From Escherichia phage CMS-2020a, in sequence record CP054387.1: a stretch of 64,000 nt of DNA; one strand, written 5' to 3'. The position numbers and the translations under genes were made by a program. Within the stretch, counting starts at the first letter, position 1, and every line of letters starts with the position of its first letter. The notes below the pieces were generated by a model. It was not told the origin of the DNA and ran no database searches. It worked only from the letters and a program-made list of their open reading frames with translations. This document shows positions 41,493 through 47,636 of this stretch, piece by piece.

Positions 41493-43178
41493 TCATTTAA
41501 CGCGTTTGAAAACGTATACGCTGACTGTGATCCCTGTGTCTTCAAACTCGTTGGTAAACGACTTCCCTCTGGCATAAACGTAATTATCCATCGTCATCCA
41601 GTCCAGTATTGGCGCAGTGCCCGGCAATACTGCTACAAGACGCCCGCCGACTTTCAGATGCCCCAGCGCAGCCAGCGTGTGCTCTCTATGACGACCAAGC
41701 GAGTACGGCGGGTTCATAACGATTTTGTCGAACTGATAACCTGCGTTGTCCTCAGACCACTTTATGAAGTCGCAGCAAATCGTGTTCGTATACCCTTTTC
41801 CACGCAGGATATCAGCGAAGAGAGGTGCGATTTCTATGCAGGTAACATCTTCCAGATCGGCGTTAATATAGGCCAGAAGATCCCCACGTCCGGCTTGAGG
41901 CTCCAACAGCTTCTCACCAGGCTTCAATTCAGTGGCTCTGGCAACGTACTCAGCAATCAAGCGTGGGGTAGGGTAGAACTGGTGTGATTTTGTATCCGGT
42001 ATTAAACCGGTAGCCACAATCGTATTTAGCGTATGGCCGATCTCATACGGGAACTGCCAGTGCTTTTTCTCCTGCACGCCGCCAATGAAGCTCAGTGTGC
42101 GCTCAAGCTCTTCCACCTGCGACTTCTGGAGAGCTGAATCAGAGAAGTACCATACGCCTTTGTCTTTGCTCAATCGCCCGTCACGAAGCGCAGTGCGAAC
42201 CGGCACGGAGATCGTCTTCTGGATTAACCCGAACTGCTTTGGTGCCCGTGTTTTTGGCGCAGTTCGGCATGGCGCGGGGATTGCAGCAGGCATACTGTAA
42301 GCCAGCACCTCATTCAACTTCCAGGCCACGTCAGGATGTATTTCAAAGTGAACGTTGCCGTTCTTGAACATCTTCACGCGCATCAGATTTCCATCGACGT
42401 TCATCCAGTCACCGGTCTGGCAGTCGTTTGCCCGATACGCAGCTGATAGCACCTCAGCAGTGCGGTTGATGGTAATAAATTCTTTGTGCGCGAAGAAATG
42501 AAGCAAGACACGCAGATCGTCGATGTAGTCCTCTTTGCGATAGTTCACGCTAACGCTGTCACGCCAGAAATCAGAAATGCAGTCAGCGATTATCAGACGC
42601 TCGCTGAAACCGTTTGTCTTATTTGTCTTGTGCGCAGGACTCAGCGCCTTAAACAAGCCATACACGCGCTCAGAGAGATATTTGTGCCTGTCATTCAGCA
42701 AATTAAGCATCGTTGGTATGACCGTTTCTGCTTTGAACTCCGGTACACCAACGAACTCTTTAACCTTCATCTGATAGCCGGTTCTGTCAGTTTTGATGAC
42801 TTCCTGCTTGCCCTCGATAAATAGCTCACGCCACTCGTCGCGACGGGAAGCTGGCATGATCAGCAGAACGTTAGTCATATCCGTAACCTTCCTCCAGTAC
42901 TCGGCCCAAATATTCTGTTTCACCCATTCCAGATCGACGTTATCCAGCCAGACTCGATTCAAACGTGAGCGATCTTCATCTGGTCGGTGGTTTAGTCGAA
43001 GCAGGCGATTAATCATGTTGTGGCGTTCATCGCCATAAACGAAGTCGTGTACCTGATACATGAAGGAGATCTCTTTCTCGCACTCGGCCACAATTTCGTG
43101 GATGACGTTCATTTCCTGTCGATAGTCGATAGCAGTGTTTGAGCTGGCATCGCCCATGATGGAAAGGGCTGTATTCAT
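41493..43178 (-). CDS. DNA N6-adenine methyltransferase with a large N-terminal domain of unknown function
   Basis: C-terminal half has SAM motif LLEPQAGRGD followed by catalytic VMNPPYS; about 400 N-terminal residues unassigned. Confidence 0.55.
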   Translation of the reverse strand: MNTALSIMGDASSNTAIDYRQEMNVIHEIVAECEKEISFMYQVHDFVYGDERHNMINRLLRLNHRPDEDRSRLNRVWLDNVDLEWVKQNIWAEYWRKVTDMTNVLLIMPASRRDEWRELFIEGKQEVIKTDRTGYQMKVKEFVGVPEFKAETVIPTMLNLLNDRHKYLSERVYGLFKALSPAHKTNKTNGFSERLIIADCISDFWRDSVSVNYRKEDYIDDLRVLLHFFAHKEFITINRTAEVLSAAYRANDCQTGDWMNVDGNLMRVKMFKNGNVHFEIHPDVAWKLNEVLAYSMPAAIPAPCRTAPKTRAPKQFGLIQKTISVPVRTALRDGRLSKDKGVWYFSDSALQKSQVEELERTLSFIGGVQEKKHWQFPYEIGHTLNTIVATGLIPDTKSHQFYPTPRLIAEYVARATELKPGEKLLEPQAGRGDLLAYINADLEDVTCIEIAPLFADILRGKGYTNTICCDFIKWSEDNAGYQFDKIVMNPPYSLGRHREHTLAALGHLKVGGRLVAVLPGTAPILDWMTMDNYVYARGKSFTNEFEDTGITVSVYVFKRVK

Positions 43179-45104: not shown

Positions 45105-45530
45105 TTAGAGATAAGCATCCAGTGACAACTGAAGCGCCTGGGCGATCTTTTTCAGCGCCTGCTCTTCTGGTTCATCAATGCCGTCTTGGTCGGCAATATC
45201 AAGGCACAGACAAAGTACATCTACTGCATCATCAGTCCCGGCCACATCCGCCAGCTCACGTAAAGCCTGGGCATTAGCACGGCGCGGTGAGGCTTCGTAT
45301 TGAGCGCGGATATTGGCGCTCATCTGGGCAATCTCACCAGCAAAAGGAGAAAATGCAGGCAGAGCTGCAATTGTTTTCTCAAGAATGGAAATTTCTTTTG
45401 CATCGCATGTACCGTTGGCATAGGAGATCATGTACCCACCCCACACGGTGGCTTCAACCGCATCACGGTTCTCCATTTTTTTGACTTCGATAACTGCTTT
45501 ACGAGTTTTCTTTTTGAAGAAACCTAACAT
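45105..45530 (-). CDS. hypothetical protein, possibly TerB-like
   Basis: 141 aa; weak TerB-like pattern; motif copy upstream. Confidence 0.3.
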   Translation of the reverse strand: MLGFFKKKTRKAVIEVKKMENRDAVEATVWGGYMISYANGTCDAKEISILEKTIAALPAFSPFAGEIAQMSANIRAQYEASPRRANAQALRELADVAGTDDAVDVLCLCLDIADQDGIDEPEEQALKKIAQALQLSLDAYL

Positions 45531-46461: not shown

Positions 46462-47055
46462 TTACTGTTTGTTATAAACAAAACCAATATCTTTCTTGTG
46501 AGGCATATCTGCTGCTGAAAAAGCTGCGATCTTCGCGAGTCGATCACATATTTCATTTTCACGATGCCCGGCGTGACCTTTAACCCACTTCCAGCGAACA
46601 TTATGTCGACTTGCGGCCTCATCCAGACGCTTCCACAGATCAACATTCTTTACCGGTTTTTTGTCAGAAGTCATCCATCCATTGCGTTTCCACCATTTCA
46701 TCCACTGTGTCATGCCGTTTTTCAGATACTGGCTATCAGAGTGCAAAATAACGTTGCATGGATATTTCAAACGCTCCAGCCCGATAAGTGCCCCCATCAT
46801 CTCCATGCGGTTATTGGTGGTGCTATGAAAACCATCTGAGAACTCGCGTTCCTCGCCACGATACTGGAGAACGATACCGTAACCGCCCGGGCCACCCGGA
46901 TTTTTAAGGCAAGAGCCATCACTAAAGATTTTCACGGTTTTAAGCTGGGGATTGAACTCTACGACAGGCGTTGTGGGATTGGTGCGGGGAGAATTTTTGT
47001 TTTTGTCTTTTTTGCGAGTTTTTGCTTGCGGTCGGGCTGGTGTCTTCGTTGTCAT
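46462..47055 (-). CDS. ribonuclease HI
   Basis: [18 protein letters not shown] and FSDGSC...GYG motifs typical of RNase HI; start at ATG 47055 (RBS AGGAG). Confidence 0.8.
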
Positions 47056-47636
47056 ATAAACTCCTGAATCAAGCGCCGCGCCGATTTTTCCTCGCGCGTG
47101 CGCACACGCGTGCGTGTTAATAATTATTAAAATAAACAAATTACTTCCCAGAACAGGTTTTTATAAACCTGAACTGAACGAACGAAGTGAGTGAAGTTCA
47201 CCTCGAACGAAGTGAGAGGTTGTCTTTTCAGGTAATACTCTCCCAGGGAGGTGAGTATAAAATTCCTCACCAACCTGGTCGTTTCATAACCTGAAAAGCT
47301 ATGGTCTAAGTCTACTGCCAGCTTAGACTTGGGAAGTTATGGATGACAGCACCCCAGAACCGAGATCTTCCCACACTTTATGAAGGGGAGTACTGGATTC
47401 AACCTCTCGAAACACCCCAGACTCGACAATCATAAAGTGACCCTTGTCTCCGCTCACTTTGGTTCCCCCTTCCCCGACACCTAAACGGCACCGGTTCTAC
47501 GCTGGTAGTGAGCTTTTTTAAACCTGACGCCAGTGACGCTTACCCCCACCCATCAGGTCGAGTCTCCAGTCTACGACTGGAAACTATCAGATCTTAGCAC
47601 TTACAATTCATCTTATGAATAGTTTGTACTTATCTA

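Follow-up and report, generated by a model that had tools for sequence, protein, structure and literature searches.

In a 64,000-nt stretch of Escherichia phage CMS-2020a (sequence record CP054387.1), referred to here as the window, we analyzed a gene for a 561-aa protein that joins a module of the Pfam family DUF4942 (PF13708) to a C-terminal N6-adenine methyltransferase domain (Table 1). The open reading frame (ORF) is complete, with an ATG start and its stop codon included, and it lies within a long co-directional block that also encodes thymidylate synthase, dihydrofolate reductase (DHFR), a 3'-5' exonuclease, a Dam-family methylase, and RNase HI. Copies with 100% identity to it are present on plasmid p09EL50 of E. 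coli O104:H4 2009EL-2050 and on Shigella sonnei plasmids, and SSU5_095, its counterpart in Salmonella phage SSU5, shares 90% identity with it. Because of these identities, we assign the window to the SSU5/pHCM2-type phage-plasmids. The gene is real, and its product is very probably a DNA adenine methyltransferase of an SSU5-type phage-plasmid. Scanning its surroundings for promoters and terminators turned up no more of them than in shuffled sequence.

The gene goes by different names. It is a "DUF4942 domain-containing protein" in RefSeq and a "DNA methyltransferase" in both the SSU5 record and PHROG 6263, whose profile (phrog_6263) aligned to aa 1 to 561 over profile positions 1 to 548 of 548 (E = 2e-298). 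None of the generic Pfam or NCBIfam methylase models reached its curated cutoff with the 561-aa protein, which accounts for the uninformative RefSeq name, a label that makes the methylase nature easy to overlook. The DUF4942-methylase family itself is large, extremely common, and already catalogued (Pfam DUF4942, PHROG 6263, RefSeq), and neither an orphan methylase at this place nor two methylases per phage-plasmid is a surprise to a specialist. The novelty of our finding is limited to recognizing the union of two autonomous modules, one of which is wholly uncharacterized. In the literature, we found no functional study of DUF4942/PF13708 or of the methylases of SSU5/pHCM2 or IncHI2.

Table 1. 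Positions in the window of the 561-aa protein, its segments and motifs, and the second methylase
Feature	Window position	Strand	Remarks
DUF4942 + methyltransferase protein	41493..43178	-	Equivalents: SSU5_095, WP_014962270.1
N-terminal segment, aa 1-80	42939..43178	-	Acidic, poorly conserved
DUF4942 module, aa 81-303	42270..42938	-	Alpha/beta
Sub-domain, aa 304-395	41994..42269	-	Small alpha/beta, basic, variable; connects DUF4942 to methylase
Methyltransferase domain, aa 396-561	41496..41993	-	Minimal class I Rossmann fold dependent on S-adenosylmethionine (SAM), gamma-type motif order
Motif X, QFYPTP, aa 400-405	41964-41981	-	Direct translation
Motif I, EPQAGRGD, aa 426-433 (LEPQAGRGD, in places given as 424-433)	41880-41903	-	Direct translation
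Motif IV, NPPY, aa 489-492	41703-41714	-	Direct translation
Phage Dam-family methylase, 197 aa	48056..48649	-	PF05869 / TIGR01712; own NPPY motif

The catalytic domain and the segment preceding it

A first-pass annotation of this DNA had read N6-adenine methyltransferase motifs in the C-terminal part of the protein, and direct translation confirmed both EPQAGRGD and NPPY. Motifs X, I, and IV all fall within the last 165 residues and follow one another in that order, with a TP-capped helix (aa 406 to 416) ahead of motif I. QFYPTP corresponds to motif X of gamma-ordered amino-methyltransferases. For the DarB-like/EcoKI/TaqI-like DNA adenine methyltransferases of phages and plasmids, Iyer et al. 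(2017, PMC5512222) describe a signature made up of a helix capped by a TP motif, motif I, and NPP(Y/F), which the 561-aa protein matches. The methylase residues E426, G430, D470, N489, P491, and H500 are invariant across relatives of ~30% identity. Among 47 representatives, N489 and P491 were conserved in 100% and P490 in 97%, and position 492 was either Y or F.

An AlphaFold (AF2) model of the protein, for which 27 homologues served as input, has a mean predicted local distance difference test score (pLDDT) of 82, with ~90 in the methylase domain. In this model, just 69 residues follow NPPY; they complete the Rossmann sheet, and a C-terminal target-recognition domain (TRD) is absent. Fold comparison gave the highest structure-based identities to DNA N6-methyladenine (m6A) enzymes, namely CamA (27%), TaqI (25%), and HsdM (22%), and in the PDB the family profile matches EcoR124 HsdM and TaqI. 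The PADLOC models mad2 (1e-15) and Type II methyltransferase (2e-10) also match the catalytic domain (Type II/IIG class), and no helicase match was found in the 561-aa protein.

The same catalytic unit is found in much larger proteins. More specifically, Serratia phage Parlo encodes a "DarB-like antirestriction" protein of 3764 aa with an internal tblastn match, the methylase unit aligns to several PHROGs of giant proteins, and aa 328 to 560 match positions 660 to 905 of phrog_9133 (E = 1.9e-50). The sub-domain at aa 304 to 395 accompanies the methylase unit in polyvalent proteins. It is the least conserved internal segment of the family (isoelectric point [pI] 9.7), with a near-invariant G366-G367. 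It may correspond to LPD36, the four-helix domain with a GxG(G/A/S) motif that lies N-terminal to the methyltransferase in DarB-like dyads; however, it is alpha/beta with a GG motif, and no Pfam LPD model matches it. At the other end of the protein, aa 1 to 18 are disordered (AF2 pLDDT below 50) and are followed by a long helical hairpin (helices 20 to 48 and 52 to 62); across the family, aa 1 to 80 have a mean identity of about 20% and a median pI of 4.8.

DUF4942 as an autonomous module

The N-terminal two thirds of the protein had at first been described as matching nothing recognizable. That description does not hold for aa 81 to 303, which a domain search assigns to DUF4942 (score of 71.3 bits over aa 140 to 295; gathering threshold, 25), and it stands insofar as DUF4942 has no known function. 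Indeed, we found no structural relative of DUF4942 in the PDB, no fold or sequence link to any known activity, and no nuclease-fold match in the N-terminal region. The DUF4942 core is conserved as strongly as the catalytic domain, with W95, L179, S180, H183, T185, N186, W258, H277, N289, and L292 invariant, and the variable parts of the protein are aa 1 to 80 and 304 to 395. Analysis of domain charge showed the middle segments to be mildly basic only.

The pairing of the two parts is a fixed feature of the family. A phmmer search with aa 1 to 395 alone, which was exhaustive over 1.84 billion representatives, revealed 611 clusters, 410 of them at E = 1e-10 or better. Since nearly all of them are 500 to 580 aa in length, at least 611 clusters share the two-part architecture. 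DUF4942 was present in all 47 sampled representatives, most of which also had a recognizable MTS or N6_Mtase domain. In addition, mosaic alleles, some of them of Klebsiella type, show 95% identity to the 561-aa protein in aa 121 to 300 and ~49 to 56% from aa 301 on (~49% in aa 396 to 561). This intragenic mosaicism therefore points to recombination that swaps the linker and methylase unit between lineages.

DUF4942 also occurs on its own. The stand-alone form (O157 L0010; WP_000065752.1) is a chromosomal protein of 281 aa that matches the full Pfam model (E = 5e-68), and CP4-57-type islands of E. coli have it annotated as their terminal gene (SRL pathogenicity island orf56/O157 L0010; PMC6980539). 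Its gene is present in 62% of the complete E. coli genomes (3349 of 5426), with a maximum of six copies. In E. coli B, the gene is intact (281 aa) and comes directly after cbtA, DUF5983, and DUF957, and the O157 Sakai copy is fragmented (ECs_4542/4543). The stand-alone protein aligns to aa 81 to 303 (hhalign probability, 98.5%), ending exactly at the start of the variable linker, and the motifs LSxx(H/Y)KxN, FKxGxxH, and LN are common to both.

Collectively, each half of the 561-aa protein occurs separately elsewhere, and DUF4942 is an autonomous module. It is therefore unlikely to be a classical, specificity-determining TRD, and its occurrence on its own argues against the idea, raised in the first-pass annotation, that the N-terminal domain might be a known domain of this kind. 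The data favor a conserved accessory role, which may be DNA binding, recruitment, or a separate activity. DUF4942 is among the commonest uncharacterized E. coli island genes, and a function for it would annotate thousands of genomes.

Distribution, genomic neighbors, and the second methylase

At the DNA level, the methylase gene was found in 557 PLSDB plasmids, and 251 of the 5426 complete E. coli genomes match it, almost always on plasmids. A tblastn search with the DUF4942 core retrieved 2319 PLSDB plasmids (1363 of them conjugative), a species-dereplicated scan showed that 270 genomes from the Gamma-, Beta-, and Alphaproteobacteria contain relatives, and a locus scan of IMG/VR returned almost solely SSU5-like relatives. 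On R478, the IncHI2 prototype, a collinear homologue of 563 aa (31% identity, E = 9e-86) has NPPF as its motif IV; a D12-class Dam is 1.8 kb away, and repHI2 is nearby. The homologue on an IncHI2-like contig adjoins a D12 Dam. IncHI2 plasmids show a comparable pairing of methylases made from other parts, in which the D12-class Dam is followed by an unannotated conserved gene of ~360 to 390 aa and by the DUF4942-methylase, in the vicinity of repHI2 and of an Ig-like repeat protein. Distant homologues lie in the early-right operons of lambdoid prophages beside N6_N4 and C5 methylases, and further ones were found in Pseudomonas and Aeromonas phages and in one Pseudomonas megaplasmid. Homologues were found in mobile contexts only, namely SSU5-like phage-plasmids, lambdoid prophages, IncHI2 and other plasmids, and the 46 diverse loci described below. 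Among Enterobacterales, both SSU5-type phage-plasmids and IncHI2 plasmids rank as major carriers of resistance genes, and a methylase present on nearly all of these elements probably affects which hosts are open to them. We also noted that a contig of a "Bacillota bacterium" metagenome-assembled genome (JAEWTL010000044.1) encodes a copy with 94% identity to the enterobacterial protein. This contig most likely comes from a phage-plasmid placed in the wrong bin, rather than pointing to a true homologue in Firmicutes.

The methylase locus is a variable spot in SSU5-like plasmids. On plasmid pIncFIB of E. coli PC-NDM34, the DUF4942-methylase is a pseudogene that has been cut after ~157 codons by an inserted type I restriction-modification (R-M) system (HsdR, HsdS), and phrog_16000 (158 aa) probably represents the stumps of methylase genes cut in this way. 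Chromosomal places matching the methylase gene number nine among the 5426 genomes. One 33-nt perfect match (window ~42471 to 42503, gene nt 676 to 708) lies inside the chromosomal type I-E CRISPR array of E. coli AST85, on the iap-cas2e side. From these chromosomal spacer matches, it follows that E. coli CRISPR spacers target the methylase gene of SSU5-like phage-plasmids.

With regard to a possible partner, the window genes flanking the 561-aa ORF gave no Pfam or PADLOC match and hold no nuclease, specificity subunit, or defense domain. The flanking ORFs of 46 diverse loci proved heterogeneous (C5 methylases, Q antiterminators, ParB-HTH, SSB, PsiB, Gp157, and DnaT, among others), and neither a recurrent partner gene nor a cognate nuclease was found among them. 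Restriction nucleases do not recur at these loci, although a PvuRts1I-like nuclease domain of the modification-dependent kind is present in a single neighbor. At 28 of the 80 best loci (about a third), there is a further DNA methylase within 10 kb, a lower bound obtained by phmmer with six seeds. The 561-aa protein is an orphan methylase typical of the early/replication regions of phages and the establishment regions of plasmids.

The window also encodes the separate small phage Dam-type methylase that the first-pass annotation had proposed. Its protein passes the curated cutoffs of PF05869 (130.8 versus 28.1 bits) and TIGR01712 (113.6 versus 97.05), and its equivalent in NC_018651.1 is annotated as "phage N-6-adenine-methyltransferase." It is unrelated in sequence to the 561-aa methylase, and no solved structure of a homologue was found for it. 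Taken together, our results confirm what the first-pass annotation observed and partly support its interpretation, in which two adenine methylases on one element have different target specificities. Characterized phage Dam relatives (T1, HP1, and VT2 Dam) are the basis for assuming GATC specificity, and by analogy the specificity of the Dam-family enzyme would probably be GATC. As a clue to specificity, the avoidance of 4-mer palindromes in the window gave only the usual enterobacterial depletion of CTAG; the observed/expected ratio of GATC, at 0.88, is normal.

Between the two methylase genes lie a TerB-like protein, annotated as tellurite/colicin resistance (window 45105 to 45530), and RNase HI (46462 to 47139). 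The mechanical ORF of the latter has a TTG start and 225 aa versus 197 aa in RefSeq, that is, an N-terminal extension of ~28 residues. Elsewhere in the window (31322 to 34613), we observed a divergent pair of chromosomal-type genes, metG (methionyl-tRNA ligase, 31322 to 33484, minus strand) and apbC/mrp (33513 to 34613, plus strand), with the GC content locally raised to 0.505. The 19.7-kb SSU5 stretch used for comparison lacks this pair. The pair occurs at 95 to 100% identity in ~200 plasmids (191 of them from Escherichia, nearly all non-mobilizable), and these plasmids constitute the E. coli lineage of SSU5-like elements.

Proposed role and comparison with known systems

On balance, we consider it somewhat probable that the 561-aa protein functions as an N6-adenine DNA methyltransferase that depends on SAM, and that it methylates the DNA of its own element in the course of replication and thereby protects it from restriction in a new host, with the Dam-family enzyme 5 kb away adding a second, different pattern. 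The catalytic unit (aa ~396 to 561, after the sub-domain at 304 to 395) would belong to the EcoKI/TaqI/DarB-like branch. Its TP-capped helix and motif I would bind SAM, and a flipped adenine would enter the NPPY pocket. Since a C-terminal TRD is absent, substrate binding or recruitment would have to come from the N-terminal part, chiefly from DUF4942. We infer that DNA is the substrate and that the element's DNA is methylated as it replicates, such that packaged or plasmid DNA may enter the next host already protected against restriction enzymes. The pattern added by the Dam-family enzyme would differ, being probably GATC. Prophage- and plasmid-borne orphan methyltransferases of E. coli are reported to be often promiscuous, silent in the carrier or lysogen, and protective on transfer (PMC4659465; PMC7736820). 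It is well established what role orphan methylases generally play on mobile elements, and no result of ours contradicts that role.

Three observations caution against reading too much into this proposal. The methylase gene is dispensable, as 64 of the 251 matching E. coli genomes lack any copy with a coverage of 80% or more (CRISPR spacers, and not gene copies, account for a few of these matches) and as it is cut in pIncFIB of PC-NDM34. In addition, RNA m6A enzymes are equally close in fold, and we found no methylome or biochemical data for any member of the DUF4942-methylase family.

The autonomy of DUF4942 bears on a different explanation, in which the fusion is a "mini-polyvalent" protein with two functions. 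DUF4942 would then act independently of methylation, by binding or inhibiting a host factor or defense complex or through recruitment to replication intermediates or single-stranded DNA (ssDNA), and the methylase would supply a second, possibly promiscuous anti-restriction activity. The stand-alone form at the ends of CP4-57-type islands fits such a protein, as do the many invariant polar residues (H183, T185, N186, H277, and N289) of a module that is conserved like the catalytic domain, the separate occurrence of the methylase unit in polyvalent proteins, and the precedent of partner-dependent ssDNA methylation by plasmid methyltransferases (PMC7736820). However, DUF4942 has no tie in fold or sequence to any known activity, its charge is only mildly basic, and the strict retention of the fusion, seen in at least 611 clusters, is just as compatible with simple DNA binding; we therefore regard this explanation as rather unlikely. 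It is possible, if doubtful, that DUF4942 confers a non-canonical selection of substrates (for example, replication intermediates, ssDNA, or a host protein, to which adenine methylation would be coupled) or acts as an anti-defense effector. The fusion would then be a compact anti-restriction protein of two functions, and its methylation would be promiscuous or dependent on context.

Epigenetic self-regulation of the element, instead of anti-restriction, would set the methylase to control origin use, packaging, or a lysis-lysogeny or copy-number switch. The gene does sit among replication and nucleotide-metabolism genes, and its IncHI2 homologues lie near repHI2. The orphan methyltransferases Dam and CcrM have regulatory roles, and packaging of P1 needs Dam methylation. 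Against such a function, the gene is often truncated or replaced with the plasmid retained, and homologues occur in very different types of replicons that have no common replication machinery, which makes it quite unlikely in our estimation.

That the enzyme serves takeover of the host by methylating RNA (m6A in rRNA or tRNA) or protein (N5 of glutamine) appears improbable. RNA methyltransferase models remain far under their cutoffs (RrnaAD, 12.3 versus 24 bits; ksgA, 15.7 versus 171; Erm, 16.5 versus 350), the nearest relatives by sequence are DNA methyltransferases and DarB-like modules, and the genomic company consists of DNA methylases and genes of DNA metabolism. Least probable, and already largely refuted, is a modification half of an R-M or other defense system on the phage-plasmid: the PADLOC mad2 and Type II/IIG methyltransferase models match the catalytic domain and the locus is a hotspot at which a type I R-M system has been inserted in some plasmids, but the flanking genes include no nuclease, specificity subunit, or defense protein, no neighbor is conserved across the 46 diverse loci, and the N-terminal region lacks a nuclease-fold match.

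As a probable orphan DNA adenine methyltransferase, the 561-aa protein shares with the EcoKI/TaqI/DarB-like enzymes the class I Rossmann fold and the motif order X (F-Y-P-T-P and helix), I (LEPxAGxG), and IV (NPPY/F). In TaqI, a canonical gamma Type II enzyme, a TRD lies C-terminal to motif VIII, whereas the 561-aa protein has none; nor does it have the HsdS partner of EcoKI, and its N terminus carries DUF4942 in place of HsdM-N or, apparently, of LPD36. It resembles the DarB-like module (PMC5512222) in being borne by phages and plasmids and in its sequence matches to giant DarB-like proteins. However, it lacks the C-terminal SF2/SNF2 helicase of the DarB-like dyad and the giant multidomain context, and packaging into the virion, as for DarB-like proteins, has no support in its case.

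The phage orphan methyltransferases (phage Dam of PF05869, P1 Dmt, and the prophage M.EcoGII type) likewise stand alone without a nuclease. Temperate phages carry them in their early/replication regions, frequently several to a genome, and self-protection is the presumed role here too (PMC4659465). The 561-aa protein differs from them in catalytic lineage and architecture. M.EcoGIX/M.BceJIII are orphan, plasmid-borne, silent enzymes with promiscuous anti-restriction m6A methylation of ssDNA and PolI as a partner (PMC7736820), and they may offer a functional analogy for an enzyme without a TRD. They are of the beta class, with DPPY and motif IV before motif I (PMC7736820), whereas the 561-aa protein has NPPY and motif I before motif IV, and there is no sequence relationship between them. 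Kinship with M.EcoGIX/M.BceJIII had been considered on the strength of the name "YdiA" on a Typhi homologue and was rejected, since those are beta-class DPPY enzymes. Finally, the stand-alone DUF4942 proteins of CP4-57-type islands are homologous to aa 81 to 303 and differ in being chromosomal and in having no methylase domain. Within this range of known systems, the 561-aa protein is an architectural variant of the orphan adenine methylases of mobile elements.
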